From Rhodospirillales bacterium (GTDB lineage: Bacteria; Pseudomonadota; Alphaproteobacteria; Rhodospirillales; JASLQF01), in assembly GCA_030744625.1 (NCBI GenBank), contig JASLQF010000044.1, forward strand, positions 66,506-130,505: a stretch of 64,000 nucleotides of DNA, in the 5' to 3' direction. How positions within the stretch are numbered: the stretch's first letter is position 1; the number at the start of each line of letters is the position of its first letter. This document shows, in pieces, positions 17,935 to 60,011 of this stretch. Made by a program: the position numbers and the translations under genes. Below the pieces are notes generated by a model. That model ran no database searches and was not told where the DNA came from. It saw nothing but the letters and a program-made list of their open reading frames with translations.

Positions 17935-17960
17935 AGACTCATTGCTCCAATTCCCAGGGA

Positions 17961-41396: not shown

Positions 41397-41417
41397 TACA
41401 TAGCGTAATTCCGGCGC

Positions 41418-42401
41418 TCAATTTTCCTGAAAGCTTTGCTGGCAGCCAAGTGCCGCCACTGCCGCCACGGCGCCGGCCAGCGCGTCCCACCCCGAGGTGT
41501 GGCCGATGGCGTCGATGGCGTCGAGGTGGGCGGCGAGGCCGGGCGCGCCGGGCGTGCCGAGCGCGGCCAGGGCTTCGTGCAGGGCGGCGGCGCCCTCTCC
41601 TTGGGCAGCGCAAGCCAAGTGCGCATAGCTGATGGCGCCGGTTTGCGCGCGGGCCAGCGGCAGCGCCCACGCCGCCAGCCGGTCCGCCGCGCCGCTTTGG
41701 TCGAAGGTACGGAGCGCGATCATGGCGCCACCCACGAAGTCGTCTCCCGATGGCGTGAGCCCCGGGCCGAGGCCGATGAGGCCGGCCGCCCCGCGCAGCC
41801 GCTGGGCGTCTTCTCCCTCTCCCCACCGATCATCTCCGAGCACCGATTCCAGCCAGGCGCGCAGCGCCGCCACCCCCGCCGAGGCGGCGCACAGGAAAGG
41901 CGAAGCGGCGAAATCTCCTTCCCCGGCGGCGCCTTCCCGGCCCGCCAGCCCGGGGATCAGGGGGCCCAGGCAGTCGGCCGGCGCTACTAGCCGCGCCCGC
42001 GTCGCCAGGGTGTCGAGTCCGCGCCCAAGATCCGCCGCCGTCCATGACATGGCGGGCGGCCCCGGCCGCCACGCCGGCGCCCCGGCGAGGGGGAAGGCGA
42101 AACGCCCGTCCACCACCAGCGCCTCACCGCCGCGCCGCGCCCGGGCCCCGGCGACGAGGCCGCTGGCCTGCCAATCGATGCCGTCGGGCAGCGCCGCGAT
42201 GGCGTTGAGTGGCCCGCCACCGAGGGACGGCGGCCCCAGGCAGGCGAGCCCGCCGCTCTTGCTTTCCACATAGAAGCTGCGCCGGAAGACCGCCATCACT
42301 CGGCCGTCCAGGCCGGATGCCAGCGCCCGTTCGGCGCCGGCCCCGAGCAGCGTTACCGGAAACGTGAAAGGCGCGGCGCGCGAGACGCCGGGCTCAGCCA
42401 T
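41418..42401 (-). CDS. ylbF: DUF2877 protein (YlbF/AllH-like)
   Basis: 327 aa with GLGPGLTPSGDDFVGGAMIAL, which I recall as the DUF2877 hallmark. It overlaps the carbamate kinase gene by 8 nt. Confidence 0.7.
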   Translation of the reverse strand: MAEPGVSRAAPFTFPVTLLGAGAERALASGLDGRVMAVFRRSFYVESKSGGLACLGPPSLGGGPLNAIAALPDGIDWQASGLVAGARARRGGEALVVDGRFAFPLAGAPAWRPGPPAMSWTAADLGRGLDTLATRARLVAPADCLGPLIPGLAGREGAAGEGDFAASPFLCAASAGVAALRAWLESVLGDDRWGEGEDAQRLRGAAGLIGLGPGLTPSGDDFVGGAMIALRTFDQSGAADRLAAWALPLARAQTGAISYAHLACAAQGEGAAALHEALAALGTPGAPGLAAHLDAIDAIGHTSGWDALAGAVAAVAALGCQQSFQEN

Positions 42402-43362
42402 CGCCGGCGACGACGTGGGTGCCGGTCTCTCCGCGCAAGGCCGGCATGGCCTCCTCGAGGTTGCCGATGATCACCCGCTTGCCGCCGCCCTCGAGGAAGC
42501 GGATCGCCGCCTCCACCTTGGGGCCCATGCTGCCCGCCGGAAACTGCCCTTCGGCGTGATAGGCGCGCATCTCGGCGAGCGACACTTCGCCGAGCTGGCG
42601 CTCCTCGGGCGTGCCGAAGTCGATGGCGATGCGGGGCACGGCGGTGAGGATCATCATCACCTCGATGTCCAGCACGTTGGCCATGAGGGCCGACGTCAGG
42701 TCCTTGTCGATGACCGCCTCGATCCCGTGGCGGGCGCCCTTCGGGCCACGGGTGACGGGGATGCCGCCGCCGCCGGCGGCGATGGCGATGGCGCCGCTTT
42801 TCGCCACCGTGTCGATGAGGGAAATATCGCAGACGTGCTTGGGCAGGGGTGAGGCCACGACCTGGCGCCAGCCGCGCCCGGCGTCCTCGATCATGGTCCA
42901 GCCCAGCCTTTCTTCCAGGTCGCGGGCCTGTTCCTCGGTATAGAAGTATCCGATCGGCTTGCTGGGGATCTTGAAGGCGGGGTCGTCGGCGTCGACCTCC
43001 ACCTGGGTCAGCAGGCACACCGCGTGGCGCTGGTTGCCGGCCTCGCGGAGCGCATTCTCCAGGGCCTGCATGAGCAGGTAGGCGATGCCGCCCTGGCTGT
43101 GCGCCACGCAGATGTCGAGGGTCATGGGCACGACCTCTTTTCGGGCCAGCACCTGGCGCATGAGGATCTTCCCCACCACCGGACCGTTGCCGTGGGTGAT
43201 GATCAACTCGTTGTCCATTTCCATGATGGGCAGCAGCGAGTCGCCGGTGTGGGCGGCGATGTCGACCTGCTGCTCGACCGTGCCCTCGATGTCTCCCGGG
43301 TGGAAGGCGTTGCCGCCGATGGCGACGAGAAGGCGCTTGGGAGTATCCAGGTGGTCGCTCAT
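42394..43362 (-). CDS. arcC: Carbamate kinase
   Basis: 322 aa with LLVAIGGNAF...ITHGNGPVVG... and AAGGGGIPV, the classic carbamate kinase motifs. Confidence 0.9.
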   Translation of the reverse strand: MSDHLDTPKRLLVAIGGNAFHPGDIEGTVEQQVDIAAHTGDSLLPIMEMDNELIITHGNGPVVGKILMRQVLARKEVVPMTLDICVAHSQGGIAYLLMQALENALREAGNQRHAVCLLTQVEVDADDPAFKIPSKPIGYFYTEEQARDLEERLGWTMIEDAGRGWRQVVASPLPKHVCDISLIDTVAKSGAIAIAAGGGGIPVTRGPKGARHGIEAVIDKDLTSALMANVLDIEVMMILTAVPRIAIDFGTPEERQLGEVSLAEMRAYHAEGQFPAGSMGPKVEAAIRFLEGGGKRVIIGNLEEAMPALRGETGTHVVAGDG

Positions 43363-43612: not shown

Positions 43613-44620
43613 ATGAAAGCATTATGGAAATCCGGAGCGGCCTGGCTTTGCCTGGCGTTCCTTTTGGGCCTTGCGGCGACCGCGGTTCCGCAACTCTCGG
43701 CGCAGGCGGCGTGGGAGCCCAAGAAGCCCGTCGAGTTCGTCATCATGGCCGGCAAGGGCGGCGGCGCCGACCGGCTTGCCCGCTTCATCCAGGGCATCAT
43801 CGAGAAGCACAAGCTGTCGTCGAAGCCCTTCGTGCCCATCAACAAGGGCGGCGGATCGGGCGCCGAGGCGTTGCGTTACCTGAAGGACAACAAGGGCAAC
43901 CCCCACGTCATCATGGCGACGCTCAACAGCTACTACACGACCCCCCTGCGCCAGCCCGGGCTTGGCGTCGATATCGAGAAGTTCACTCCGATCACGCGCC
44001 TGGCCGAAGACACCTTCCAGCTTTGGGTCCATTCCGACACCAACATCAATTCGGTCGACGACTACGTCAAGGCCGTCAAAGCAGCGGGCGGCGCCAACTG
44101 GAAGATGGGTGGTACCGGCAAGGGCCAGGAAGACTCGCTGGTCACCGGGATGCTGGAGAAGAAGTTCGGCATTAAGGTGACCTACGTTCCCTTCAAGGGC
44201 GGCGGAACGGTGGCCAAGCAGCTCATCGGCAAGCACCTCAACTCGACCGTCAACAACCCGTCCGAGCAGGCCGGTTTCTGGGAGGCCGGCAAGTCGCGGC
44301 CGCTCGCCAGCTTCACGCCCAAGGGCAAGCTGAAGGGCCGCTTCGGCAAAATCCCGACCTTCGAGGAACTGGGCTACGGCGCAGAAATGGTCTACTACAT
44401 GCAGCGTAGCGTCATCGCCCCCGAAGGCATCGACAAGAACGTACAGGCCTTCTACGTCAGCGTCTTCGACAAGGTCTACAAGTCCAAAGAGTGGCAGGAC
44501 TACCTCGGTAAGAAGGGCTTGATTCCGGGTTGGCTGACAGGCGGCGAACTCACCAGGTACTTCGTCAAGGAGCGCGAGGCCCATCGCGCCATGCTCAAGG
44601 CGGCGGGCGAAATAAAGTAG
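43613..44620 (+). CDS. tctC: Tripartite tricarboxylate transporter substrate-binding protein (TctC/Bug family)
   Basis: From the ATG at 43613, with AGGGAGGA upstream. It has a signal peptide MKALWKSGAAWLCLAFLLGLAATAV, then PVEFVIMAGKGGGAD...VPFKGGG. Confidence 0.85.
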   Translation: MKALWKSGAAWLCLAFLLGLAATAVPQLSAQAAWEPKKPVEFVIMAGKGGGADRLARFIQGIIEKHKLSSKPFVPINKGGGSGAEALRYLKDNKGNPHVIMATLNSYYTTPLRQPGLGVDIEKFTPITRLAEDTFQLWVHSDTNINSVDDYVKAVKAAGGANWKMGGTGKGQEDSLVTGMLEKKFGIKVTYVPFKGGGTVAKQLIGKHLNSTVNNPSEQAGFWEAGKSRPLASFTPKGKLKGRFGKIPTFEELGYGAEMVYYMQRSVIAPEGIDKNVQAFYVSVFDKVYKSKEWQDYLGKKGLIPGWLTGGELTRYFVKEREAHRAMLKAAGEIK

Positions 44621-44669
44621 CCGCGCCGCGATAGCGGACATCGGGGGAAACGGGAGGAAAAACACCGTC

Positions 44670-45167
44670 ATGCGCGTTGCCGAGCTCGTCATGGCCATCG
44701 CCATGGCGGTGTTCTCCCTTTTGCTGATGTGGAAAAGCACGGAACTCCCCATCGGCTGGATACCCGGAGAGGGTCCAGGCGGTGGGGCGTTTCCGTTCTG
44801 GCTGTCGGCGGCGATGCTGCTCTGCTGCATCGCCATCATCGTCCGCTGGGTGCTCAGGGCCAGCCCTCCGTCGCGTTCCACGGAAGCCTACATGGACCCC
44901 CAAGCGCTCAAGCTGTTCGCCCTGGTGGCCGGCTCGCTGACGGTGATGGTCGGTCTCATCCACATCATTGGCGTCTATATCTCGCTGCCGCTCTTTATGA
45001 TTTTCTACATGCGTGTCCTCGGCGGGCACTCATGGAAGACCGTCGGCGGCATTGCCACCGCCACCCCCGTCGTCTCGTTCTTTTTCTTCGAGATCGCCCT
45101 GAAGATCGAGCTGCCCAAGGGCATGACGGAACCGCTGTTCTATCCCCTCTACGACATCTTTATGTGA
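44670..45167 (+). CDS. tctB: TctB-family small membrane subunit
   Basis: 165 aa with four hydrophobic helices, positioned between tctC and tctA. Confidence 0.7.
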   Translation: MRVAELVMAIAMAVFSLLLMWKSTELPIGWIPGEGPGGGAFPFWLSAAMLLCCIAIIVRWVLRASPPSRSTEAYMDPQALKLFALVAGSLTVMVGLIHIIGVYISLPLFMIFYMRVLGGHSWKTVGGIATATPVVSFFFFEIALKIELPKGMTEPLFYPLYDIFM

Positions 45168-45197
45168 TCGGCCGACAATGCGGCCGAGTTAGCAAGC

Positions 45198-46718
45198 ATG
45201 GAAATTTTCGCCCACCTCGCCGATGGTTTCCTGATCGCCTTCGAGCCTCTCAACCTGGGGCTCGTGGTCTTCGGATGCGCGGTTGGGCTGTTCATCGGCG
45301 CCATGCCGGGCCTGGGCTCGGTCAACGGGGTCGCCATTCTGCTGCCCATGACGTTCCTGGTGCCGCCGACCTCGGCCATCATTTTCCTCGGCGCAATCTA
45401 TTACGGCGCCATGTACGGGGGCGCCATCAGCTCGATCATGCTGGGCATCCCCGGCGCCTCGACGGCGGTGGCCACCACCTTCGACGGCCGCCCCATGGCC
45501 ATGCAGGGCAGGGCGGACGAAGCCCTGATCGCGGCGGCGGTCGCGTCGTTCGTCGGCGGTTCCATTTCGATCGTGCTTTTCACCCTGTTCGCGCCGCCCC
45601 TCGCCGAGGTGGCGCTCGCCTTCGGCCCGCCCGAGGAATTCGCCTTGATGGTCCTCGCCTTCGCCACCTTCATCGGGCTCGGCGGCGACGACATCCCGAA
45701 GACCTTCTTCTCCATCTGCATCGGACTGGTGATGAGCGCCGTCGGCCTCGACATCGTCAGCGGCGAGCCACGGCTGATCTTCGGCGACCTGCCCGGCTTC
45801 TTTCATGGAATAAATTTCCTGGTGCTGGCCATCGGCATCTACGGCATCGGCGAGATGCTGTGGACGGTGGAGATCAGCAAGGGCGAAGTCATGGTGTCGC
45901 AGGCGACGGTGACCTTGGCGCGCGTCGTCGCCGGGCTGAAGAACCTCAAAGGCACCATCAAGACCATGTTGATGGGGTCGTTCCTGGGCTATTTCGTGGG
46001 CATCCTGCCGGCCGCCGGGGCGACGCCCGGGTCCTTGATGGCCTACGGCATCGCCAAGACCATCAGCAAGGACCCGGACAGCTTCGGCAAGGGCAACGTG
46101 GATGGCGTGGTGGCCCCCGAATCAGCCAACAACGCGGCCTCGACGGGCTCCATGCTGCCCATGCTGACCCTCGGCATTCCGGGCTCGCCGACCACCGCCA
46201 TCCTGCTTGGCGGCATGGTCATCTGGGGGCTCGAGCCGGGGCCGCTTCTGTTCGTCAATCACGCCGACTTCGTATGGGGGCTGATCGCCAGCCTGTATGC
46301 CGCCAACCTCTTCGCACTGCTCATCAATATCGGCTTCATCCCGGTCTTCATCTGGGTGCTGAGACTGCCATTCACCATCCTGGCGCCGTTGATCTTCGGG
46401 CTGTGCGTGATCGGCGGGTACGCTCCCACCCGAAGCATGCACGACCTCTGGCTAATGCTGATTTTCGGTGTCGTCGGATATCTGATGCGCAAGCTCGATT
46501 ACCCAATGGCGCCGGCCGTCCTCGCCATCGTGCTCGGCCCGCTCGCCGAGCGCTCCATGCGCCAGACCCTGATCGGCTCGCACGGCGACATCACGGAGTT
46601 CTTCGTGCGCCCCATCTCGGGCACCATCATGGTCGTCGCCCTCATCCTTATTTTCCTGCCGCTAGTCAACGTCTTGCGCAACATGGTGCGCCACCGAATC
46701 TCCAAAACGCCACTCTAG
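45198..46718 (+). CDS. tctA: TctA-family large permease subunit
   Basis: 506 aa, polytopic, with GAMPGLG..NGVA.LLP and PESANNAA..G...P.L.LGIPGS motifs. Confidence 0.9.
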   Translation: MEIFAHLADGFLIAFEPLNLGLVVFGCAVGLFIGAMPGLGSVNGVAILLPMTFLVPPTSAIIFLGAIYYGAMYGGAISSIMLGIPGASTAVATTFDGRPMAMQGRADEALIAAAVASFVGGSISIVLFTLFAPPLAEVALAFGPPEEFALMVLAFATFIGLGGDDIPKTFFSICIGLVMSAVGLDIVSGEPRLIFGDLPGFFHGINFLVLAIGIYGIGEMLWTVEISKGEVMVSQATVTLARVVAGLKNLKGTIKTMLMGSFLGYFVGILPAAGATPGSLMAYGIAKTISKDPDSFGKGNVDGVVAPESANNAASTGSMLPMLTLGIPGSPTTAILLGGMVIWGLEPGPLLFVNHADFVWGLIASLYAANLFALLINIGFIPVFIWVLRLPFTILAPLIFGLCVIGGYAPTRSMHDLWLMLIFGVVGYLMRKLDYPMAPAVLAIVLGPLAERSMRQTLIGSHGDITEFFVRPISGTIMVVALILIFLPLVNVLRNMVRHRISKTPL

Positions 46719-46822: not shown

Positions 46823-47533
46823 ATGGCCGACGTAGAAGCCCTCATTCGGCCCATACAGGTCGATGCCAGCCTCACCAACAAGGCGTACGATGCCCTCAAG
46901 GGGGCGATCGCGTCGATGAACATCTACCAGGACGGCGCCGAACAGCGCCTCGACGAGCGCCAGCTCTCGGAGGCGCTCGGCGTCAGCCGGACGCCCATCC
47001 GCGAGGCCCTCGTCCGCCTCGAGCAGGAAGGGCTGGTGCGCATCGTCCCCCGCAGGGGAGCCTTCGTCGTCCGCAAGTCGCAACGCCAAGTGGTCGAGAT
47101 GATCGTCGTGTGGGCGGCGCTGGAGAGCATGGCGGCCCGCCTCGTCACCGAAAACGCCACGGACGCCGAGATCGCCAGCCTGCGCCGCATGTTCGCCACC
47201 TTCGAGAACGACCAGGTGGAAGCCAAGATCGACGAATATTCGGAGACCAACATCCGCTTTCACCAAGCCTTGCTCAAGATGAGCGGCAACGACCTGATCG
47301 CCCAGATGACCGAAAACCTTTTCATCCACATGGGCGCCATCCGCATGCGGACGATCGCCGAGGACAACCGGGCGAGCCGTTCGATCATCGACCACATGAA
47401 CATCATCGAGGCGCTGGAGGCACGCGACACCGAGCTCGCCGAGCGCCTCGCCCGGCAACACACATTGGATCTGGCGGCGCACGTCGAAAAGAACACGCGC
47501 TACTTGGACCGAGGTCCCCAACAGGACCCCTGA
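46823..47533 (+). CDS. GntR-family (FadR/FCD subfamily) transcriptional regulator
   Basis: From the ATG at 46823: ...LDERQLSEALGVSRTPIREALVRLEQEGLVRIVPRRGAFV, followed by a helical FCD-type domain. The 934-aa track ORF upstream of this point is an alternate-frame artefact. Confidence 0.85.
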   Translation: MADVEALIRPIQVDASLTNKAYDALKGAIASMNIYQDGAEQRLDERQLSEALGVSRTPIREALVRLEQEGLVRIVPRRGAFVVRKSQRQVVEMIVVWAALESMAARLVTENATDAEIASLRRMFATFENDQVEAKIDEYSETNIRFHQALLKMSGNDLIAQMTENLFIHMGAIRMRTIAEDNRASRSIIDHMNIIEALEARDTELAERLARQHTLDLAAHVEKNTRYLDRGPQQDP

Positions 47534-47556: not shown

Positions 47557-49278
47557 ATGGCTGAAGTAGTTGAAAAGATTAAAAAACCCGATGTAGGCGG
47601 AGAGCGCATCTCCGGCGGCCACCTAGTCGCCAAGGCGCTGAAGGCGGAAGGCGTCGATACCATCTTCACGCTCTGCGGCGGCCACATCATCGACATCTAC
47701 GACGGCTGCCTCGACGAAGGCATTCGCATCATCGACGTGCGCCACGAGCAGGTCGCCGCCCACGCCGCCGACGGCTACGCGCGCCAGACCGGCAAGACCG
47801 GCTGCGTGGTGACGACGGCGGGACCCGGCTGCACCAACGCCATGACCGGCATCGCCAACGCCTTCCGCGCCGAAAGCCCGATCCTGCACATCGGCGGCCA
47901 GGGTTCGTTGACGCAGCACAAGATGGGTTCGCTCCAGGACCTGCCCCATGTCGACATGATGGCGCCGATCACCAAATTCTCCGCCTCCGTGCCCTCCACC
48001 GAGCGCATCGCCGACATGGTCTCGATGGCCTTCCGCGAATGCCACAACGGGGCTCCCGGGCCGTCCTATCTGGAGATCCCGCGCGACGTACTGGACGCCG
48101 AGGTGGACCTGTCGGCGGCGCGCCTGCCCGCGCCCGGCCAATACCGCGCCTCCACCCGCTCCATCGGCGACCCCGCCGATATCGAGAGGCTGGCCGACAT
48201 CCTGGTCAAGTCGGAGCGGCCCTGTATCCTGCTCGGCACCCAGGTCGCCACCTGCCGCGCCTATGACGACGCCATCGGACTGGTGCGCGCCCTCAACATC
48301 CCGGCCTACATGAACGGCGCCGGGCGCGGCACCCTGCCGCCGGGCGATCCCCACCACTTCCACCGCACGCGGCGCATGGCGTTCGACAAGGCCGACGTCA
48401 TCGTCATCGTCGGCACGCCGTTCGATTTCCGCATGGGCTACGGCAAGCGTCTGAGGGCCGAGGCCACCGTCGTGCAGATCGACATGGACTACCGCACCGT
48501 GGGCAAGAACCGCGATATCTCGCTGGGTCTCGCCGGCGACGTGGGCGCCATCCTGGGCGCGGTGGCCGACGCAGCCACCGGGCGCGCCGATAACGGCGCC
48601 GAGGGCCGCCAGGGGTGGCTCGACGAGCTGCGCGCCGCCGAAGCGGTGGCCTCCGAAAAGCTGATGGGGATGTTCAAATCGGACAACACACCGATCAATC
48701 CCTACCGCGTCGCCTGGGAACTCAACGAGTTCTTAACCGACGACACCATCTACATCGGCGACGGCGGCGACGTGGTGACCATCACGGCGCAGGCCGTGCA
48801 GCCGCGCTCGCCCGGCCATTGGATGGACCCGGGGCCGCTGGGCACGCTGGGCGTCGGCACCGCGTTCTCCCTGGCGTCCAAGCTCGCCCATCCCGAGAAA
48901 GAGGTGCTCTGCTATTACGGCGACGGCGCCTTCGCCATGACCGGCTTCGACATGGAGACCGCCAACCGCTTCGACGCGCCGTTCATCGGCGTCATCGGCA
49001 ACAACTCGGCGATGAACCAGATCCGCTGTGGCCAGATCATCAAGTACGGCGAACAGCGCGGCAACGTCGGCAACAAGCTGGGCGACGTGGATTTCGAGAA
49101 GTTCGGCCAAATGCTGGGCGGTCACGGCGAGGCCGTGCGCGACCCGGCCGACATCGCCCCGGCGCTGGTCCGCGCCCGCCAGGCCGTCGCCTCCACGGGC
49201 AAGTGCGCCGTCGTCAACATCTGGGTCGATCCGGACGAGTACGCGCCGGGCACCAGGAACCAGACCATGTACAAGTAA
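47557..49278 (+). CDS. oxc: ThDP-dependent oxalyl-CoA decarboxylase family enzyme
   Basis: 573 aa from the ATG at 47557, with AGGAGGAAGG upstream. It has ThDP-enzyme architecture ([19 protein letters not shown]...NN motif). Adjacency to frc supports an Oxc or 2-hydroxyacyl-CoA-lyase-type function. Confidence 0.75.
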
Positions 49279-49330: not shown

Positions 49331-50578
49331 ATGGGAAAAGCTCTCGAGGGTATCCGCATACTAGACATGACCCACGTTCAATCGGGTCCCACGGCCACGC
49401 AAATCCTCGCCTGGTTCGGCGCCGACTGCATCAAGGTCGAGCGCCCCGGCGCCGGCGACGCGACGCGCGGCCAACTGCGCGACCTGGAAGACGTGGACAG
49501 CCTTTATTTCACCATGCTGAACCACAACAAACGCAGCATTACCCTCAACCCCAAGACCGAAACGGGGAACAAGATCTTCGCCAAACTGATCGAGGAATGC
49601 GATGTGATGGTGGAGAATTTCGCCCCCGGCGCCATCGACCGCATGGGCTTTCCCTGGGAGAAGATCCAGGAGATCAACCCGCGCATGATCTATGCCTCGG
49701 TCAAGGGCTTCGGCCCCGGCCCCTACGAGGACTGCAAGGTCTATGAGAACGTCGCCCAATGCACGGGCGGCTCGGCCTCGACCACCGGCGAGATTGGCAG
49801 GGTGCCGCTGGTCACCGGCGCCCAGATCGGGGATTCGGGAACCGGCATCCACCTGGTCGCCGGCATCCTGGCCGCCCTCCTCCACCGCGAGCGCTCGGGC
49901 CGCGGGCAACGCGTCGAGTGCGCCATGCAGGACTCCGTGCTCAATCTCTGCCGGGTCAAGTTGCGCGACCAGCAGCGTATCGTCCACGGGCCCCTGACCG
50001 AATATCCCCAGTACCCCAACGGCACGTTCGGCGAGGCGGTACCGCGCGCCGGCAACGCCTCGGGCGGCGGCCAGCCCGGCTGGATCGTCAAATGCAAGGG
50101 GTGGGAGGACGATCCGGACTCCTACATCTACGTCATCACCCAGGCCGCCGCGTTCCACGCCTTCGCCAAGGCCATCGGCCGCGAGGACTGGCTCGACGAC
50201 CCGGAATGGAATACGCCCGCGGCGCGCCTGCCCAAGCTCGACCAGGTGTTCGCCGAGATCGAAAAATGGACCATGACCAAGACCAAGTTCGAGGTCATGG
50301 ACATCCTCAACCCGCTCAACGTTCCGTGCGGGCCGATCCTGTCCATGAAGGAGCTGGCGGAGGAGCCCTCGCTGCGTGCCACCGGGACCATCGTCGAGGT
50401 AGATCACCCGACGCGCGGCAAGTACCTGACGGTGGGCAACCCGATCAAGCTATCCGACTCGCCAAGCGAGGTGGTGGCATCTCCGCTCCTGGGCGAGCAC
50501 ACCGAGGAAATCCTCAAGGACATCATCGGCTTCGGCGACGAGGAAATCGAAAAGGCGCGCACCGAGGGCGCCATCTAG
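49331..50578 (+). CDS. frc: Formyl-CoA:oxalate CoA-transferase
   Basis: 415 aa. It matches my memory of O. formigenes Frc closely: [72 protein letters not shown]. Confidence 0.93.
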
Positions 50579-50658
50579 AAGCAACCGGCTGTTTGCCAAG
50601 GTGGCCAAGAACCACCGGGCGCTCTATACAAGCAACTCGATTTTGGGAGGTGCAGACC

Positions 50659-51573
50659 ATGCGCATCATCGTCAACGGGCAGCAGGCTTTCGGCAAGGCC
50701 GTGCTCGACGCCCTGTTGGAACGCGGCGAGGACGTCATCGCCGTCTATTGCGCCCCGGAACAGGAAGGCCGGCGCGCCGATCCCTTGCGCGAGGCGGCCG
50801 AGGAAAGGGGCCTGCCCCTCTTCCAGCCGCCGTCCTACAAGAAGCCCGAGGTGTGGGAACAGCTCAAGGAACTCAAGCCCGACCTCGGCGTGATGGCCTT
50901 CGTCACCCTGTTCGTGGTCGAGGAGTTCCTCGACACGCCGACCCACGGCACCATCCAGTACCACCCGTCGCTGCTGCCCCTGCACCGGGGCCCGAGTTCC
51001 ATCAACTGGCCGATCATCCAGGGCGCCAAGAAGACCGGCTTGTCCATTTTCTGGCCCGACAACGGCCTCGATACCGGCCCCATCCTTCTCCAGAAGGAGG
51101 TCGAGATCACCGCCGACGATACGCTTGGCACCGTCTACTTCGAAAAGCTTTTCCAGCTCGGCGTCGACGCCATGGTGGAAAGCGTCGACCTTGTCAAGGC
51201 CGGCAAGGCGCCGAAAATCGTCCAGGACGAGACCAACGCCACCTACGAGAGCTGGTGCAAAAAGGAAGACGCCGAAATCGACTGGAGCAAACCCGCCCCG
51301 GACGTCTACAACCTGATCCGCGGCACAAACCCGGCGCCCGGCGCCTGGACCACCCACGCCGGCAAGACACTGCAGATCTTCGATAGCGCCAGGCTCGACG
51401 AGGCCTCCGGCGCGCCCGGCGAAGTGCTCGACGTGTCGGCCGACGGCATCGCCGTCGCCGCGGCGGGCGGCGGCATCCTGGTCAAGCGGGTGCGCGCCGA
51501 GGGCGGCCAGAAAGTCCCGGCCGCTGAATTCACCACCGAAGCCGGTCTCGCCAAGGGCGAGCGGCTGGGCTGA
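50659..51573 (+). CDS. Formyltransferase-fold protein, stand-alone homolog of the N-terminal domain of 10-formyl-THF dehydrogenase
   Basis: 304 aa from the ATG at 50659, with GGGAGG upstream. It contains [50 protein letters not shown] plus a C-terminal Fmt-type beta-barrel domain. It has no carrier or ALDH domain. Confidence 0.8.
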
Positions 51574-51634: not shown

Positions 51635-53323
51635 ATGGCAACGAGCAGAAAACCGAAGAGCGACATTGAAATCGCCCGCGTGGCGAAGATGAAACCCGTC
51701 ACCGAGATCGCCGAGCGTATCGGCATTCCCTCCCAGCACATCCACCTCTATGGACCGAACAAGGGCAAGGTCACCCTCGACTTCATCGATTCCCTCAAGA
51801 ACCGGCGCAACGGCAAGCTGATCCTGGTCACCGCCATCACGCCGACGCCGGCCGGCGAGGGCAAGACGACGACGTCGGTGGGCCTCGTCGACGGCCTCAA
51901 CCGCATCGGCAAGAACGCCATGATCTGCCTGCGCGAGCCAAGCCTCGGCCCATGCTTCGGCATGAAGGGCGGCGCCGCCGGCGGCGGCTACGCCCAGGTG
52001 GTGCCCATGGAGGACATCAACCTCCACTTCACCGGCGACATGCACGCCATCGGCACCGCCCACAACCTGCTCTCGGCGATGACCGACAACCACATCTACT
52101 GGGGTGCGGAGCCGGCCGTCGATGCCCGTCGGGTCAGCTGGCGCCGCGTCGTCGACATGAACGACCGGGCGCTGCGCGACGTGGTGGTATCGCTCGGCGG
52201 CGTTGCCAACGGCTTTGCGCGCCAGTCCGGATTCGACATCACGGTGGCCTCCGAAATCATGGCCATCTTCTGTCTTTCGCAGAACCTGGCCGACTTGCAG
52301 CGCCGCCTCGGCAACATCATCGTCGGCCAGACGCGGAGCCGGCAATCGGTGACCGCCAAGGACATAAAGGCCGACGGCTCGATGACGGCGCTCCTGCGCG
52401 ACGCCCTCATGCCCAACCTGGTGCAGACCCTGGAGAACAACCCCGCCTTCATACACGGCGGTCCCTTCGCCAACATCGCGCACGGCTGCAACACCCTGAT
52501 CGCCACCAAGACTGCCTTGAAGCTCTCCGACTACGTGGTTACCGAGGCCGGCTTCGGCGCTGACCTGGGGGCCGAGAAGTTCTTCGACATCAAGTGCCGC
52601 AAGGGTGGCCTGAAGCCCGACGCGGTGGTCCTCGTCGCCACCGTGCGGGCGCTCAAGATGCACGGCGGCGTGGCGCGCCAGGACTTGGCCAAGGAGAACG
52701 TCAAGGCCGTCAAGGCCGGGCTCGAGAACCTGGGCCGCCACCTGAAAAACCTGAAGCGCTTCGGCGTTCCCGCCATCGTCGGCATCAACCAGTTCAGCGC
52801 CGACAGCAAGGCCGAGATGGCGGCCATCCGCGCCTATTGCAAAAAACTGAACGTGCCCGCTTTCGAGAACAGTCACTGGGCCGACGGCGGCGCCGGCACC
52901 GAGGCAATGGCGCGGAAGGTCGTCGAGGTGGCGGATTCGGGCAAGGCCAGGTTCAAGCCCATCTACCCCGACAAGATGCCGTTGATGGAGAAGATCCGCA
53001 CCGTCGCCAAGACCATCTACGGGGCCAAGGACATCGCCGTCGACAAGAGCGTCGAGGACCAGATCAAGCGGGCCGAGGCGGAAGGTTTCGGCCGCTTCCC
53101 CGTGTGCATGGCCAAGACCCAGTACAGCTTCTCGTCGGACCCCGATCTCAAGGGGGCGCCCTCGGGCTTCACCGTGCCCATCCGCGAGGTGCGGCTGTCG
53201 GGCGGGGCCGAGTTCATTGTCGCCATCTGCGGCCAGATCATGACCATGCCGGGCCTGCCCCGGGTGCCGGCGGCCAACAGCATTTTCGTCAACGACGCCG
53301 GCCAGATCGAGGGGCTGTTCTAG
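51635..53323 (+). CDS. fhs: Formate-tetrahydrofolate ligase
   Basis: 562 aa with [44 protein letters not shown] and [12 protein letters not shown], which are unmistakable Fhs motifs. Confidence 0.95.
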
Positions 53324-53432: not shown

Positions 53433-54656
53433 ATGGACACACGAATGAGCAGCGTCGAATTTAACGAGATGAGGGTCCTGGTCATCGATGATCATGCCTT
53501 CGTTCGCCACACCATTGGCCGCATGCTCTCGGCCCTGGGGGTGAGGGAGGTTGTCGATTCCGCCGACGGTGTCGAGGCGATGATCCGGCTGAAGGACGAT
53601 CCCGATCCCTTCGACGTCATATTTTGCGACCTGCAGCTCCCGGGACGCGATGGCATCGAAATTCTGCGTGATCTATCCCAACTCGGATCGAGCGCCGGCA
53701 TCGTTCTCATCAGTGGCGAAGACGAGAGCGTCCTCAAGGCCGCCCGAAACCTTGCTACCGAGCAGGGCCTGCGCGTGCTGGGAAGCCTGTCCAAGCCGAT
53801 AGGCGCCGACCAGGTCAAGGCAGTCATGGAACGCGTCAAGGAGGAACGATCGGATACGGTCCACGGCCCACAGCTTTCGATCGAGGCCGACGACCTGCGG
53901 CGCGCCATAGATCAGCGCGAAATCTATCCCCACTTCCAACCGAAGGTCCGGCTCGCCACCCACGAACTCGAGAGCGTCGAGGCGCTGGCGCGCTGGAACC
54001 ATCCGCAACACGGCCACGTCAGCCCGGGCGTATTCATTCCCCTGGCCGAGGAGCACGGGCTGATCGACGCCTTGACCAACGTCATGTTGGAGCAGGCGGT
54101 CAAGCAGTGCGATGAATGGCGCGAAAGTGGCTTGAACATACAGTTGGCCGTCAATTTATCGGTCGACTCGCTGGGCCGTCTCGACCTTCCGGAATATATT
54201 TCGGGCGTCGCCGAGCGTTTCGGGATCGAGACGTCGCAGATGGTTCTCGAAGTGACCGAGAGCCGGATATCGGACAATCCGACGGCGCTTCTGGACATCA
54301 CCACCCGTCTGCGGCTCAAGCGGTTCGAGCTGTCGATCGACGATTTCGGTACCGGGTATTCCAGCTTGCAGCAGCTTCAACGCCTGCCCTTCACGGAGCT
54401 GAAAATCGACGGCGCCTTCGTTACCGGCGCCAGCCAGGACGCGACGGCGCGCTCGATCCTGGAGTCGAGCATCGACCTGGCCCAGAGGCTCGGCATGAAG
54501 ATCGTCGTGGAAGGCGTGGAAACACGCGCCGATTGGGACCTCGTCAAATCACTGGGCTGCGATTTGGCGCAAGGTTATTTCATCGCCAGACCGATGCCGG
54601 GCGACGAGCTTGAAGCGTGGCTTGAAGCGTGGGAACGCCAAGTGCCGCCGGCGTGA
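53433..54656 (+). CDS. Response regulator with EAL (c-di-GMP phosphodiesterase) domain
   Basis: 407 aa. The REC domain reads MRVLVIDD...DVIFCDLQLPGRDG. The EAL domain has EALARW, EVTES, DDFGTGYSSL, KIDGAFV, EGVET and QGYF, so the catalytic residues appear intact. Confidence 0.85.
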   Translation: MDTRMSSVEFNEMRVLVIDDHAFVRHTIGRMLSALGVREVVDSADGVEAMIRLKDDPDPFDVIFCDLQLPGRDGIEILRDLSQLGSSAGIVLISGEDESVLKAARNLATEQGLRVLGSLSKPIGADQVKAVMERVKEERSDTVHGPQLSIEADDLRRAIDQREIYPHFQPKVRLATHELESVEALARWNHPQHGHVSPGVFIPLAEEHGLIDALTNVMLEQAVKQCDEWRESGLNIQLAVNLSVDSLGRLDLPEYISGVAERFGIETSQMVLEVTESRISDNPTALLDITTRLRLKRFELSIDDFGTGYSSLQQLQRLPFTELKIDGAFVTGASQDATARSILESSIDLAQRLGMKIVVEGVETRADWDLVKSLGCDLAQGYFIARPMPGDELEAWLEAWERQVPPA

Positions 54657-54664: not shown

Positions 54665-57600
54665 CTAGGTCAGACGACGGATAAAAGTCTCCACGTCCGC
54701 GAACTCCTTATAAATCTTCGGCAAAAGCAAGCTTATCGAAGACCAGTCGTCGGCGGCGGCCGCGTTCTCCAGGTTCTGCAGCAATTCGGTAAGCCGCGGC
54801 GCCGCCGCCGATGCGGCGGCGCCCTTGGCGCTGTGCGCCGCCTCGCGCAGCGCCACCGCGTCCTTGGATCGGACAAACCGCCTCAGGTCGTCCGGCGTTT
54901 CCATCATGGTTTCCACGAAGAAACTCAGCGTATCCATCAAGAACTCGTCGGCATCGCTGCCCAGGAGCCGCGCCAGTTCCACCATGTCGATGGGCGCCTC
55001 CGCGGACGCCGGCCGGTCACCGCGGTGCGTCTCCGGCAAACCGGCGTCGGCCGCTACGGCATCGCCGGAAAGGGCACCCGGCATCCATCGGGACACGACC
55101 TTTCCGAGCTGCTCCAATTCGACCGGCTTGGCGAGATAATCGTCCATGCCCGCCGCCAGGCACCGTTCCGCTTCCCCCTCCAGGGCGTTGGCGGTGATCG
55201 CGATGATGGGGACGCGGGACTTCGTTTCCGTTTCCGATTGGCGGATGGCGCCGGTCAGTTGGAACCCGTCCATCCGGGGCATGTGGCAATCGGTGAGGAC
55301 GATTCCGAATTTCCTGGAATTCCACAATTCGATGGCCGCTTCGCCGTCGGCCACGAATTCCGCGGCGTAGCCAAGCCGATCGAGATGAAGCCGCATGACC
55401 CGCTGATTGATGGCGTTGTCTTCCGCCACCAGGATGAGCTGCCCCTTTGCCTCGGCTTCCTCGATCGGCGGTGCGACGGCGGCACCGATATCGACCATCT
55501 CCTCGACTTGCCTGATCTCGGGACTCCGGCGGCCGGCGGCGACAGCCACAGCGGTCAAAAAGCTGGACCGGCGGACCGGCCTGCCGACATACACGCTGTC
55601 ACTTGGTCTCGTGTCGTTCGCCCCCATGGGGTCGTTGGTCAAGAGAACATAGCGCACCTCCGAAAGCGCCGCCTCGTTTCTAAGGAAATCACGGTCGGCG
55701 GCCTGACGCTCGCTTGACCATTCCCCGCTGATAACAACGACACCGAACGGCGTCCCCTCGGCCCCGGCCTCGGCGGCGCGCCGCGATGCTTCTTCAATAT
55801 CGTTTGTGGTCTCGACGTCCGCCTTCCAGTAACCCAGATAGGTGGGAATGATATTGCTGACGTCCGGGTCCTTGGCGATCACCAGAACGCGCACACCCTC
55901 CAGATTATCGGTCGTTTCCTCGACGGCCGGTTGCTCGGCGGCCTCGAAGGGCAGCGTCACGGTAAAGGTCGATCCGGCACCGGGCTCGCTCTCGACCGCG
56001 ATGCTTCCGCCCATCAGATCGGCCAGACGCGCGCAAATGGAAAGCCCCAGTCCCGTGCCACCGAACTGGCGCGTCGTCGAGCCTTCCGCCTGGGTGAACG
56101 ATTCGAACAGCTTGTCTTGCGCCTCCGTTGGAATCCCGATTCCCGTATCGATGATCGTGAAGCGCACGGTGATTTTCTTTTTCGAGCGCGATGGCACGCG
56201 CTCGGCCCGCACGAAGACCTTTCCGACCATGGTGAACTTGACCGCGTTACCGACGAGATTGAACAGGATTTGCCGCAGGCGCACTTGATCGCCCTGCATG
56301 ATCTCGGGGATGGTCGGATCGACGAAGACAGGTAGGGCGAGGCCCTTTTCCCGGGCCCCGGGCACCAGGCTTTCGACCACGCCTTCGACGACATGGCAAA
56401 CGGAAAACGGTATTCGCTCGAGACGCAGCTTGCCGGCTTCGATCTTCGAGAAATCCAGAATGTCGTCGATGATTTGCAGCAGCAAGAACGAGGACTGGCG
56501 CACGGTGTCGAGCATTCCGCGTTGCTCGGTATCGAGCTTCGAGCGCACCAACAGATCGAGCATTCCGACGACGCCGTTCATGGGCGTGCGGATTTCGTGG
56601 CTCATGGTCGCCAGAAAGGTCGATTTGGCGCGTGCCGCCGCTTCCGCCTGGTCCCGGGCCTTCTCCAATTCCTCGGCGGCCCGCTTTCGGTCGGTGATGT
56701 CATTGAAGATGCAGACGATTCCGCCGTCGGCGGTGGGCGTCCGAAGGCCCTCGATGAAGCGGCCGCTGGGAACCGTGTCCTCGATCCTGCGGACCTTGCC
56801 GCTACGGTACCCTTCGAGACGTTGCTCGACGAGTTCATCGGCGTCACCGGGTCCATAGTCGCCGCGCTCGGCCCGGGTCTGCAGGATACCGCGAAGCGAC
56901 ACGCCGGTCGCAACGACGTGTTCCGGCATGTCGTAGTATTCGCGGAACCTGTCGTTGATGACTTGCAGAGTCAGGTCCTTGTCGACCATGAAGATCGCGC
57001 CCGACATGTTGTCAAGGGCGCTGCGCAACTGCGCCTCCTTTGCCGTCAAGGCCTCTTCGGCCCGCTTGCGATCGGTGATGTCGGCGTGAATGCTGACCGT
57101 GCCGCCCGCCGACGTCCGGCGGTCGCGGATCTGCACGTAGCGGCCGTCGGCAAGATGATCCTCGAAAGTCTCCTCGGCCTTGCCAAAGATTTCCATACGG
57201 CGGCGCAGCACCTCCTGGGCACCCGAGCCCTTGACCGTGCCGCGATCAGAATCCATTTGAAGCAATTGAGCGAACGAGACGCCGGGTTTCACGTTCGCAT
57301 CACTGTAACCGTACAATTCCTTGTACTTGCCGTTGCACAGCACCAGCCTGTCGTCGGCGTCGAAAAGGGAAAAGCCCTCGGAAACGCTCTCGATGGCGTC
57401 CATCATTCGGGCCTCGGCTTCCGCCGCGGCATCTTTGGCTAGGCGCAAGGCCTCCTCGGCCCGTTTGCGCTCGGTGATGTCGGCGTGAATGCTGACCGTG
57501 CCGCCCGCCGACGTCCGGCGGTCGCGGATCTGTACCCAGCGGCCGTCGGCAAGCGGCTCCTCGAAAGTCTCCTCGGTCTTGCCAAAGAAATGCGTACGAC

Positions 57601-59863
57601 GGCGCAGCATCTTCTTGGCGCCTGAATCCCTGACCGTGCCGCGATCAAAATCCATTTGGATCAATTGAGCGAGCGTGACTCCGGGTTCCACGTCGGTATC
57701 GCTGTAACCGTACAGTTCCTTGTATTTGCCGTTGTACAGCAAGAGCCGGTTGTCGGCATCGAAGAGGGCGAAGCCTTCGGAGATGTTCTCGATGGCGTCC
57801 ATCATTCGGGCTTCGGCTTCCGCCGCGGCGTCCTTCGCGGCAAGCAGTTCCTCTTCGGCCCGCTTGCGCTGGGTGATGTTGAGCAGCAGGCCGTCCCAGA
57901 TCACGTCGCCATTCTCGGCCTTGCGCACGCTGGCCCTGCCGCTGATCCATTTCTCCATGCCGCTTTCGGTGACGACCCGGAACTCCAGGTTCCAGGGCTT
58001 GAGCTTTGCCGCCGATTCCTTCATGGACGAGAAGAACCGCTCGCCATCATCGGGGTGGACAAGGGACATCATTCGCTTCGAGTTCCCGGTCACCTCCTCG
58101 GGCTCCAGTTCCAGGAGGTCGCGGACGCCGGGGCTAACGTATGGGAAGGAGAGACTGCCGTCCGGGTGAAGTGCTCTGCGATAGACCACCCCGGGGACAT
58201 TGGCCGTGATGGTTTCGTAGCTCGCCTCGCTTTCGCGCAAGGCGCCCTCGACCCGCTTGATATTGGTAATGTCGGTGATCCAGCTGACGTAGCTCGTTTC
58301 ACCCTGGTATACGATCGGATCGATCGACAAGAGGGCCCAAATATATGAGTTGTCCCGACGTTTGATCCGCACTTCGGCATTCCGCACCAAACCTTCGTCC
58401 TTCATCATTCTCGAAATCGCCTGGTGATCGGTACCGTCGAAGTAGGCGTCGGCGGCTTTCATTTGAAGAAGTTCCCGCTCCGAAAAATTGGTCAGTTCGG
58501 AAGTGCGCGAGTTGACGTAACTAAAACGCCCCCCTTCATCCGTTATCGTCACGCAGATCGGGCTGGTCTCCAGGATGGCGCGGAGTTCGGCCTCCTTCGT
58601 TGCCAGGGCTTCTTCGTTGCGCTTGCGCTCGGTAATGTTGGCAGTGGAACCGATCATGCGGACGGCCCGATCGTCCGGTCCGCGTTGGACGATGCCCCGC
58701 TGGTGGATCCAAAGCCAGTTGCCGTCGTCATCCCTGAGCCGGTATTCGGCGGAGTATCGCTCGTCCTCGCCCTTCAGGGCGGCAACGAAGCGGGCGCGCA
58801 CATCTTCCTGGTCATCGGGGTGGATTCGCTCCGCCCAAGCCGCCGCCGAACCGTCCCAATCGCGGAGCCCATATTCGGTCTTGAAATCCGTTGGATAGTA
58901 GACCTGGTCCATCTCCAGGTCCCAGTCGTAGAGGGCATCCCGGGTCGCCCGGGTGGCCAGCGCGTAGCGTTCCTCGGAGACACGGAGCGCCTCTTCAACC
59001 CGCTTGCGCTCGGTGATGTCCGTATGGGTGGACAGGAAACCTCCGCCCGGTATCGGTTTCCCGCGAACTTCGATGACCGTTCCATCGGGCCGCGTGCGTT
59101 CGAAAACGTGAGGTTCGAACTTGCGCGCCAGTTCCATTCGTTCGCGGACCTGTTCTTCCACGTCGCCGGGTCCGTAATCGCCACGCTCGGCGTTGAAGCG
59201 AAACGCCTCTTCCAACGTACTCCCGACCTTGAACTTGTCGGTCGGAAGCCCGAGGATATCCAGGCACTTGGTATTGACAGCGACCAAATTGAGTTCGCCG
59301 TCGAACATGGAAACGCCTTGATCCATGTTTTCCAGGGTCGCTTCGAGAACGGCCTTCTGGCTGGCCAGTTGTTCCTGGGCTTCCTTGAGTTCCGTCACGT
59401 TGGTGTGAATGCCGACAAAGCCGCCGGCCCTGGCGCGCCTCTCCTTCGTCTGGATCCAGCGGCCATCGTTCAAATGTTGAAGGAAACTCTCGCCCGATGG
59501 GTTGACATGCTTCGCCATGCGCTCCTTTTTCCATTTGTCCACTTCGTCGGGACTGCCGGTCAACTGGCCTCGCTCCTCCGCCGCGTCGAGGATCTCGGAG
59601 AACGTGATGCCGGCGACCATCTTGTACGCGATCAGCGGGAACATGTTCTTGTACTGGTCGTTGCACATGACCAGCCGGTCCTCGGCATCGAAGTAGGCGA
59701 AGCCTTCCGACATGGTGGCGATGGCGTCGGGGAATCGTTCCTCGGCATCCACGGCACTCTCTTCGCGGTCTTGTATTAGCCCCCGCAGGGCCATCACCTC
59801 GTCGACGAGCTCGGCCTTGGTGCGCCGCATGAGCGCCGCCGCGGAATTCGTTGATGACGTCAT
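54665..59863 (-). CDS. Cytoplasmic multi-PAS (about 8) hybrid sensor histidine kinase with pseudo-receiver, receiver and C-terminal Hpt domain
   Basis: The preferred start is the ATG at 59863, with GGGAGG 5-6 nt upstream; the track ORF extends to 59908. There are repeated PAS modules, each ending in ..DIT.RKR.EEAL. The H-box is SHEIRTPMNG, followed by a HATPase domain (GGTGLGLSI), a REC domain (LVAEDN...TDCHMPRMDG...KP) and an Hpt domain (HSAKGAAAS). There are no TM segments. Confidence 0.9.
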   Translation of the reverse strand: MTSSTNSAAALMRRTKAELVDEVMALRGLIQDREESAVDAEERFPDAIATMSEGFAYFDAEDRLVMCNDQYKNMFPLIAYKMVAGITFSEILDAAEERGQLTGSPDEVDKWKKERMAKHVNPSGESFLQHLNDGRWIQTKERRARAGGFVGIHTNVTELKEAQEQLASQKAVLEATLENMDQGVSMFDGELNLVAVNTKCLDILGLPTDKFKVGSTLEEAFRFNAERGDYGPGDVEEQVRERMELARKFEPHVFERTRPDGTVIEVRGKPIPGGGFLSTHTDITERKRVEEALRVSEERYALATRATRDALYDWDLEMDQVYYPTDFKTEYGLRDWDGSAAAWAERIHPDDQEDVRARFVAALKGEDERYSAEYRLRDDDGNWLWIHQRGIVQRGPDDRAVRMIGSTANITERKRNEEALATKEAELRAILETSPICVTITDEGGRFSYVNSRTSELTNFSERELLQMKAADAYFDGTDHQAISRMMKDEGLVRNAEVRIKRRDNSYIWALLSIDPIVYQGETSYVSWITDITNIKRVEGALRESEASYETITANVPGVVYRRALHPDGSLSFPYVSPGVRDLLELEPEEVTGNSKRMMSLVHPDDGERFFSSMKESAAKLKPWNLEFRVVTESGMEKWISGRASVRKAENGDVIWDGLLLNITQRKRAEEELLAAKDAAAEAEARMMDAIENISEGFALFDADNRLLLYNGKYKELYGYSDTDVEPGVTLAQLIQMDFDRGTVRDSGAKKMLRRRTHFFGKTEETFEEPLADGRWVQIRDRRTSAGGTVSIHADITERKRAEEALRLAKDAAAEAEARMMDAIESVSEGFSLFDADDRLVLCNGKYKELYGYSDANVKPGVSFAQLLQMDSDRGTVKGSGAQEVLRRRMEIFGKAEETFEDHLADGRYVQIRDRRTSAGGTVSIHADITDRKRAEEALTAKEAQLRSALDNMSGAIFMVDKDLTLQVINDRFREYYDMPEHVVATGVSLRGILQTRAERGDYGPGDADELVEQRLEGYRSGKVRRIEDTVPSGRFIEGLRTPTADGGIVCIFNDITDRKRAAEELEKARDQAEAAARAKSTFLATMSHEIRTPMNGVVGMLDLLVRSKLDTEQRGMLDTVRQSSFLLLQIIDDILDFSKIEAGKLRLERIPFSVCHVVEGVVESLVPGAREKGLALPVFVDPTIPEIMQGDQVRLRQILFNLVGNAVKFTMVGKVFVRAERVPSRSKKKITVRFTIIDTGIGIPTEAQDKLFESFTQAEGSTTRQFGGTGLGLSICARLADLMGGSIAVESEPGAGSTFTVTLPFEAAEQPAVEETTDNLEGVRVLVIAKDPDVSNIIPTYLGYWKADVETTNDIEEASRRAAEAGAEGTPFGVVVISGEWSSERQAADRDFLRNEAALSEVRYVLLTNDPMGANDTRPSDSVYVGRPVRRSSFLTAVAVAAGRRSPEIRQVEEMVDIGAAVAPPIEEAEAKGQLILVAEDNAINQRVMRLHLDRLGYAAEFVADGEAAIELWNSRKFGIVLTDCHMPRMDGFQLTGAIRQSETETKSRVPIIAITANALEGEAERCLAAGMDDYLAKPVELEQLGKVVSRWMPGALSGDAVAADAGLPETHRGDRPASAEAPIDMVELARLLGSDADEFLMDTLSFFVETMMETPDDLRRFVRSKDAVALREAAHSAKGAAASAAAPRLTELLQNLENAAAADDWSSISLLLPKIYKEFADVETFIRRLT
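57050..57847 (-). repeat. Tandem duplication of a 399-bp (133-codon) PAS module inside the kinase gene
   Basis: Units 57050..57448 and 57449..57847 align without gaps and include a 62-nt identical run (TCGGTGATGTCGGCGTGAATGCTGACCGTGCCGCCCGCCGACGTCCGGCGGTCGCGGATCTG). The protein units are about three-quarters identical by eye. Confidence 0.85.
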
Positions 59864-60011
59864 TTTCGCCTCCCACCGTTCGTGGCCGACAGACAAAGCC
59901 TGGGGCAAACTGAAGGTAAGGACAAGAGGGGGGAAAGATTCAGCAGGCCGAGCGCGCCGCCGGCGAGCGCGCCAAGGGAAAGACGTCGACGCGCCGGCTT
60001 CCAGGTTGCGT

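Follow-up and report, generated by a model that had tools for sequence, protein, structure and literature searches.

Bacteria carry activated formate in two forms, formyl-coenzyme A (formyl-CoA) and 10-formyl-tetrahydrofolate (10-formyl-THF). We know of no primary-metabolic enzyme that links them, and the only demonstrated cases are LctF and HypX. Here, we describe a candidate for such a link, a gene (hereafter, X) located between frc and fhs in a 64,000-nucleotide stretch of DNA from a Rhodospirillales bacterium (assembly GCA_030744625.1, contig JASLQF010000044.1, positions 66,506–130,505 of the forward strand; hereafter, the window). Although both the family and the type of reaction have been described before, the novelty lies in a distinct clade of stand-alone proteins that resemble 10-formyl-THF dehydrogenase (FDH, also ALDH1L1), are mis-annotated throughout as methionyl-tRNA formyltransferase (Fmt), and are found in oxalate-catabolic operons.

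Three described systems frame the chemistry considered for X. The N-terminal domain of FDH (hereafter, FDH-Nt) hands the formyl group of 10-formyl-THF to a tethered 4'-phosphopantetheine, and its in-vitro hydrolysis of 10-formyl-THF is also thiol-dependent (PMC4388273). The key residues of the hydrolase domain in zebrafish FDH are Phe89, His106, Ser108, Arg114, Asp142, and Tyr200 (PMC4388273). LctF, from the lactacystin biosynthesis of Streptomyces lactacystinicus, was reported in 2025 to convert 10-formyl-THF + CoA to formyl-CoA in vitro, based on liquid chromatography–mass spectrometry, with detectable product formed from millimolar substrates (PMC11730586). The HypX N-domain (6j0p) binds THF and moves the formyl group of 10-formyl-THF to CoA during synthesis of the CO ligand of O2-tolerant [NiFe] hydrogenase. 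Because all three do so, formylation of a thiol is an established capability of this superfamily. An earlier, sequence-only reading of the window had proposed that X is a formyl-CoA:THF formyltransferase and knew of no characterized enzyme for this reaction; LctF and the HypX N-domain, which make formyl-CoA from 10-formyl-THF and CoA, are such enzymes.

X and its immediate neighbors occupy the following positions in the window.

50659–51573, + strand: X, stand-alone FDH-Nt-like formyltransferase (Formyl_trans_N, residues 2–173; Formyl_trans_C, residues 201–293)
50645–50650, + strand: Shine-Dalgarno sequence GGGAGG, 8 nt before the ATG of X
49331–50578, + strand: frc, formyl-CoA:oxalate CoA-transferase (TIGR03253, 681 bits; cutoff 504)
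51635–53323, + strand: fhs, formate-tetrahydrofolate ligase (PRK13505, 905 bits; cutoff 652)

The open reading frame of X begins with ATG (read from the window) and encodes a 304-aa product containing the peptide strings quoted in the sequence-only reading (including IDWSKPA..VYNLIRG). The same-strand gaps of 80 bp after the end of frc and 61 bp before the start of fhs also agree with that reading. A promoter and terminator scan of the window found no terminator-like site on the + strand between frc, X, and fhs, its counts being otherwise at chance level. X is a real gene, given that 11 public contigs, from marine metagenomes and a Rhodospirillales metagenome-assembled genome, carry the identical protein. 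Pfam assigned Formyl_trans_N (E 5e-32) and Formyl_trans_C (E 7.5e-24) to the protein and nothing else; over the full 304 aa, the scan found no carrier, aldehyde dehydrogenase (ALDH), ACT, or other regulatory domain, as the earlier reading had held for the carrier and ALDH domains. Since X has no carrier domain, its acceptor thiol, if it uses one, must come from a free molecule or from another protein.

To place X among the formyltransferase subfamilies, its sequence was compared with all PDB sequences and with NCBIfam equivalog models that have curated cutoffs. The best PDB matches were the N-terminal domains of FDH/ALDH1L1 (E 4e-68 to 2e-65, 225–233 bits, 39–41% identity), led by 4qpd (4e-68, 233 bits; X residues 1–292 versus 1–307), followed by Fmt (1e-47, 166 bits), ArnA (~1e-30), PurN (~1e-12), and HypX (3e-11). 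The top NCBIfam match was the Fmt model TIGR00460, for which X scored 182.5 bits, below the cutoff of 201.5. Scores were further below the cutoffs for the PurU models (20.6 versus 286 bits), the PurN model (54 versus 150 bits), and the ArnA model (139 versus 777 bits), which rules out these three identities; PurU is also excluded by the missing ACT domain. The earlier description of X as collinear with FDH-Nt, and less like Fmt, PurN, or PurU, is borne out by these values.

A neighbor-joining tree of 50%-identity representatives (100 bootstraps), in which Fmt was anchored by deformylase-Fmt fusions and FDH by ALDH fusions, placed X outside the Fmt clade in 99 of 100 bootstraps, as the earlier proposal had presupposed. 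X clusters with stand-alone bacterial proteins, and the eukaryotic FDH fusions fall among them, with the deeper branching in this part of the tree not resolved. The PDRPxGRG loop of Fmt, which recognizes initiator tRNA and is 5 residues longer, was present in all displayed Fmt representatives and absent from X, from the displayed stand-alone non-Fmt proteins, and from the FDH fusions. Similarly, the Asn of the N-x-H motif was found in 33 of 34 Fmt representatives, whereas this position is Gln or Cys in X orthologs and Ile in FDH. The net charge of the linker and C-terminal region is −4 in X, −3 ± 4 in its orthologs, and +2.5 ± 2.8 in Fmt, with overlapping ranges. Even though the database annotation of X and its identical entries is methionyl-tRNA formyltransferase throughout, the sub-cutoff score, the missing tRNA loop, the missing catalytic Asn, and the separate clade rule out this identity. 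By these sequence comparisons, X is an FDH-Nt-like stand-alone protein, and neither Fmt, PurU, nor PurN.

Alignment places the catalytic residues of X at His102, Ser104, and Asp138, with Phe85, Arg110, and Tyr196 as the equivalents of the other key FDH residues, and Gln100 at the site of the catalytic Asn of Fmt and PurN. Among 81 orthologs, the equivalents of His106, Ser108, Asp142, and Tyr200 (zebrafish numbering) are invariant; at the Arg114 site, 69 have Arg and 12 have Lys, and at the Phe89 site, 57 have Phe. Residue 100 (window positions 50956–50958) is Gln in 70/81 orthologs and Cys in 11/81. All 11 Cys100 orthologs are linked to frc, and Cys100 is absent from unlinked copies. Of the 81 orthologs, 78–79 keep the Trp199-Cys200 pair (window positions 51253–51258), as do many stand-alone relatives that are more distant; the FDH fusions lack it. 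Ile85 and Thr201 mark one unlinked clade of X orthologs.

To determine how widely the frc-X-fhs arrangement occurs, we surveyed 80 loci containing X orthologs (62–73% identical to X; one genome per species; ±8–10 kb per locus) from Alpha- and Gammaproteobacteria, SAR324, Entotheonella, and others. Linkage was counted only at loci with enough flanking sequence (72 upstream; 29 frc-linked loci downstream). In 34 of the 72 loci, frc lies directly upstream of X on the same strand (median gap 37 nt); where frc is linked, fhs is the next gene after X in 20 of 29 loci (median gap 72 nt). X is therefore coupled to frc and fhs far beyond chance, with operon-like gaps. Linked and unlinked orthologs interleave in the tree, which rules out the frc-linked orthologs as a separate functional clade; X is best described as one orthologous group with recurrent linkage. 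The earlier proposal relied on a conserved neighborhood, and this stands for the frc- and fhs-linked loci, though not for the roughly one half of the orthologs that are not beside frc.

The product of frc handles formyl-CoA, the product of fhs makes 10-formyl-THF, and the position of X between them recurs across phyla; this placement is the main argument that X may exchange formyl groups between CoA and THF. The recurrence of this linkage over the whole ortholog tree, rather than in one subclade, adds support. We therefore infer the acceptor and the direction of transfer from homology and context, and propose that X may be a reversible 10-formyl-THF:CoA formyltransferase (formyl-CoA + THF <-> 10-formyl-THF + CoA), an assignment that we hold at about even chances. 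X would use the His102/Ser104/Asp138 core that it shares with FDH-Nt, with the thiol of free CoA replacing the tethered 4'-phosphopantetheine, and would couple two pools, the formyl-CoA of the Frc/decarboxylase cycle and the 10-formyl-THF that Fhs produces. Fhs would convert formate + ATP + THF to 10-formyl-THF, X would convert 10-formyl-THF + CoA to formyl-CoA + THF, and Frc would convert formyl-CoA + oxalate to oxalyl-CoA + formate, whereas the decarboxylase would return formyl-CoA + CO2 from oxalyl-CoA. The sum of the Fhs, X, and Frc steps would be oxalate + ATP + CoA -> oxalyl-CoA + ADP + Pi, in which formate and THF act catalytically. Such a route could start the cycle, replace hydrolyzed formyl-CoA, and supply net oxalyl-CoA where it is drawn off; with a surplus of formyl-CoA, X might run in reverse and pass one-carbon (C1) units to THF. 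That such a cycle needs priming is established: formyl-CoA, the most labile of these thioesters, has a half-life of 1.9 h (oxalyl-CoA, 29 h), and E. coli encodes a dedicated priming enzyme, YfdE, in its oxalate operon (PMC3720670). We therefore lean modestly toward formyl-CoA as the net direction (priming and anaplerosis) over a net drain toward THF.

The remaining genes of the operon and its upstream neighbors were identified as follows.

47557–49278, + strand: thiamine diphosphate (ThDP, TPP) enzyme of the HACL/OXC group (earlier called oxc), below the canonical Oxc cutoff
46823–47533, + strand: GntR/FCD-family regulator heading the operon
43613–46718, + strand: tctC-tctB-tctA tripartite carboxylate transporter, found upstream in 15–22 of 80 related loci, depending on the subunit
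38632–43362, both strands: allG-allF (+) and allH-carbamate kinase (−), oxamate carbamoyltransferase subunits and carbamate kinase, outside the operon

The operon thus reads gntR, TPP enzyme, frc, X, and fhs on one strand (+), and a GntR/FCD regulator and the TctCBA transporter usually precede the frc-linked operons. The gene order given in the sequence-only reading was correct, but its oxc is not a canonical oxalyl-CoA decarboxylase (Oxc), given that the ThDP enzyme scores 234 bits on the canonical Oxc model versus a cutoff of 557. The closest solved relatives of the ThDP enzyme are 2-hydroxyacyl-CoA lyases (256 bits), whereas Oxc structures score 164–181 bits. Across the sister operons, the ThDP slot holds the HACL-like type of the window in ~21 loci and canonical Oxc (TIGR03254, 1032 bits) in 11 loci (L002, L017, L021, L022, L029, L030, L047, L056, L068, L075, and L076). 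Because canonical Oxc fills the slot in these 11 loci, the operon is an oxalate module or, more exactly, a module leading from oxalyl-CoA to formyl-CoA. For the same reason, the ThDP enzyme of the window is presumed to be the formyl-CoA-producing step, apparently a paralogous replacement of Oxc. It may decarboxylate oxalyl-CoA as a so far unrecognized kind of Oxc, or it may be a lyase that acts on a different substrate.

Accessory genes next to fhs differ among the sister loci. Six loci (L038, L042, L061, L062, L069, and L079) have a gene for a PanE/ApbA-family reductase (NF005089, 455 bits) after fhs, in many cases preceded by a universal-stress-protein gene. PanE2/ApbA2 proteins are CoA-acylating glyoxylate dehydrogenases, also called oxalyl-CoA reductases, and the post-fhs protein is a candidate enzyme of this type. 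If it is an oxalyl-CoA reductase, it constitutes a drain that calls for net oxalyl-CoA. A gamma-glutamyltransferase (GGT)-family gene, possibly encoding an oxamate amidohydrolase, lies beside fhs in another set of six loci (L030, L032, L038, L046, L047, and L052), and a SucC-like ATP-grasp protein is encoded in seven linked loci. In four loci (L022, L027, L075, and L076), a gene for a NuoF-like subunit, which we take to be consistent with the FdsB subunit of NAD-formate dehydrogenase, is located downstream of or near fhs. The same four loci contain genes that presumably encode large molybdopterin subunits (cluster c77, family assumed), which would fit an NAD-dependent formate dehydrogenase; such genes after the operon fit formate oxidation as an outlet of the pathway. 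A search of the window for accessory genes found no PanE-like reductase, GGT/HpxW-like amidohydrolase, FdsB-like gene, SucC-like gene, or second formyltransferase. Two AMP-forming ligases are encoded in the window, neither of which matches a specific family above cutoff.

With respect to oxalate supply, the allGFH genes lie 7 kb from X in the window, just upstream of the transporter, and X is beside AllG and an amidase in three unlinked loci (L019, L037, and L043). Together, these positions suggest that the ureide route from oxalurate through oxamate to oxalate feeds this pathway, with allGFH and carbamate kinase as a probable internal source of oxamate, hence of oxalate. A cluster farther upstream (window ~12000–25600) encodes Rieske oxygenase components, two amidases, a MarR regulator, and a molybdenum hydroxylase (17961–20300) that has FAD and 2Fe-2S subunits. 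Taken with a hydantoinase/oxoprolinase at 32203–35994, this cluster looks like catabolism of N-heterocycles or amides. Immediately downstream of fhs are a response-regulator-EAL protein (53433–54656, + strand) and a 1747-aa PAS-rich hybrid histidine kinase (54665–59908, − strand), both kept on all three contigs (L081–L083) that bear an identical X; they may provide cyclic di-GMP-linked regulation of, or by, the operon.

Several observations weigh against CoA as the acceptor of X and against net flux toward formyl-CoA. About half of the X orthologs are not beside frc or fhs, and their contexts are mixed: an alpha/beta-hydrolase clade, a CoA-ester-rich neighborhood, and a solitary copy in the sole cultured isolate among the orthologs found, Rhodospirillaceae bacterium SYSU D60014 (L086, JAJYFV010000002.1; 72% identity), which has a formamidase (FmdA_AmdA) and a peptide-type ABC transporter upstream on the other strand. 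No cultured strain with the linked operon was present among these orthologs. The AlphaFold (AF2) model of X is confident and has the expected fold (mean predicted local distance difference test score, pLDDT, of 93.6). However, Foldseek gave template-modeling (TM) scores of 0.91–0.94 to Fmt and ArnA, as high as or above those to FDH-Nt (0.84–0.89), and 0.67 to HypX. For this reason, the modeled fold confirms the superfamily only and says nothing on acceptor or subfamily. No CoA-binding determinant was identified in X, and the use of CoA is argued from context and homology. HypX, one of the two CoA-formylating precedents, is only distantly related to X (E 3e-11, 18% identity, TM 0.67). By rough textbook values, the X step toward formyl-CoA is uphill by ~10 kJ/mol, although downstream decarboxylation pulls it. 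Finally, the isolated FDH N-domain acts as a hydrolase in vitro (PMC4388273).

If X does act on CoA, the net flux could also run mainly from formyl-CoA + THF to 10-formyl-THF + CoA, supplying C1 units without ATP, or ATP through reverse Fhs, as the sequence-only reading had proposed. We regard this as rather unlikely; it differs from the favored reading in net direction only, and the credence given to it is somewhat less than half of that given to CoA chemistry as a whole, not an addition to it. The direction is thermodynamically downhill by the same rough values, the frc/fhs linkage fits it equally, and C. necator is documented to use ApbA2/PanE2 in a linear route from glyoxylate through oxalyl-CoA to formyl-CoA, which yields formyl-CoA on balance. 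The PanE-family genes after fhs in six sister loci and the NAD-formate-dehydrogenase-like genes in four are also in its favor. On the other hand, each oxalate turn of the Frc/decarboxylase cycle regenerates exactly one formyl-CoA, which is needed to activate the next oxalate, and the ATP-free feed or ATP yield from oxalate proposed earlier does not hold on this count. Because the cycle makes no net formyl-CoA, oxalate could no longer be activated under a net drain without a second means of activation, at a price of one ATP or more, and this extra activation would cancel the ATP regained by reverse Fhs, leaving no net saving. A drain would be worthwhile only if oxalyl-CoA were supplied by oxidation of glyoxylate. 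The window lacks the PanE-like gene needed for that, and neither of the AMP-forming ligases encoded there can be assigned to a specific family above cutoff. In addition, all characterized precedents run from 10-formyl-THF to a thiol. The role proposed earlier is plausible from the chemistry of the nearest relative and from the linkage, but its direction is the reverse of these precedents.

X could instead be a thiol-dependent 10-formyl-THF hydrolase, a stand-alone FDH hydrolase domain analogous to PurU, that releases formate and regenerates THF, possibly via the formyl thioester of a small thiol, in which case the link to frc and fhs would reflect formate/C1 housekeeping. The thiol-dependent hydrolysis by the isolated FDH N-domain (PMC4388273), whose key residues are kept in X, speaks for this, as do the half of the orthologs that lie outside oxalate operons, including the solitary copies. 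One unlinked clade also pairs X with a same-strand 247-aa alpha/beta-hydrolase in ~8–10 loci, where it may allow formyl-thioester hydrolysis; at L006, the hydrolase gene (8869–9612) overlaps the end of X, and equivalents occur at L010, L012, L013, L018, L031, L035, and L078. Such a paired enzyme could be a formyl-thioester hydrolase and make a two-step formyl-THF deformylase. However, an unregulated hydrolase co-transcribed with Fhs would form an ATP-wasting loop, X has no ACT or other regulatory domain, the recurrent slot between frc and fhs would go unexplained, and the PurU models score X far below cutoff; overall, we consider this reading improbable. Slightly more doubtful still is the formylation of another acceptor, such as the phosphopantetheine of a carrier protein, glutathione, pantetheine, or an amine of the ureide/oxamate pathway. 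The superfamily is versatile (tRNA, sugar-nucleotide, glycinamide ribonucleotide, and carrier-protein acceptors), AllG and an amidase adjoin X in three loci while allGFH is near X in the window, and Cys200 is kept in the stand-alone group and absent from FDH fusions. Nevertheless, neither a carrier protein nor an enzyme that might produce an amine is a regular neighbor of X, Gln or Cys takes the place of the Asn that serves amine formylation, and frc and fhs are by far its commonest partners. That X is a (second) methionyl-tRNA formyltransferase is hardly credible: source annotations, the TM scores to Fmt, and the top NCBIfam match suggest it, but the score is 182.5 bits against a cutoff of 201.5, the PDRPxGRG loop is absent, Asn is changed to Gln or Cys, and X is excluded from the Fmt clade in 99/100 bootstraps. 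The acidic C-terminal region points only weakly the same way, its range overlapping with that of Fmt.

Returning to the reversible 10-formyl-THF:CoA formyltransferase, a broader and more tentative idea is that frc-X-fhs could be a so far unrecognized module whose three enzymes together turn oxalate (and formate) into CoA thioesters for one ATP -> ADP, with THF as the formyl relay. In the same scheme, the stand-alone X clade might be the bacterial stock from which animal ALDH1L1 arose by tethering the pantetheine thiol that X would take from free CoA. We found no paper on X in oxalate operons, nor one that places such an enzyme in oxalate metabolism or other primary metabolism. If the assignment is true, X would be a direct bridge between formyl-THF and formyl-CoA in primary metabolism and would show how abundant marine Proteobacteria can start the Frc/Oxc cycle and keep it turning although formyl-CoA is labile. 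It would also correct the annotation of a widespread family labeled "methionyl-tRNA formyltransferase", give synthetic C1 and formyl-CoA-elongation designs a naturally occurring, ADP-forming way to get from formate to formyl-CoA, and suggest why the N-domain of ALDH1L1 depends on a thiol and how it arose.

Compared to the known systems, X is most similar to the N-domain of FDH/ALDH1L1 (4qpd, 1s3i, 2bw0), with which it is collinear over ~300 residues (39–41% identity). Both have a short loop in place of the Fmt tRNA loop, lack the catalytic Asn, and keep the His/Ser/Arg/Asp/Tyr/Phe set. In contrast, FDH is fused to a 4'-phosphopantetheine carrier and aldehyde dehydrogenase domains, whereas X stands alone; position 100 is Ile in FDH and Gln or Cys in the X group, Trp199-Cys200 occurs only on the X side, and X lacks a 5-residue insertion after residue 62. 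Fmt shares the two-domain fold and the His/Ser/Asp core, but differs from X in the model score, the tRNA loop, the catalytic Asn, and the clade. LctF is, like X, a stand-alone protein of the Fmt superfamily, and its reaction is that proposed for X in reverse notation, the activity of X being predicted; unlike X, it is encoded in a secondary-metabolite cluster, where it supplies a polyketide synthase acyltransferase (compared by description only: LC830955; 32% identical to Fmt). HypX has an Fmt-type fold and demonstrably moves the formyl group from 10-formyl-THF to CoA, as X is predicted to do, but it is fused to an enoyl-CoA-hydratase-like decarbonylase, binds CoA as a prosthetic group, and has Asp80 instead of Ser in its triad. 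X has a genomic partner that handles formyl-CoA, with frc upstream in 34/72 loci and an HACL/OXC-type enzyme before frc. If the net flux is toward formyl-CoA, X would resemble E. coli YfdE, an acetyl-CoA:oxalate CoA-transferase, as an operon-encoded primer of the Frc/Oxc cycle (PMC3720670). YfdE is, however, a class III CoA-transferase of an unrelated family that draws on acetyl-CoA, whereas X would draw on ATP via Fhs and 10-formyl-THF.

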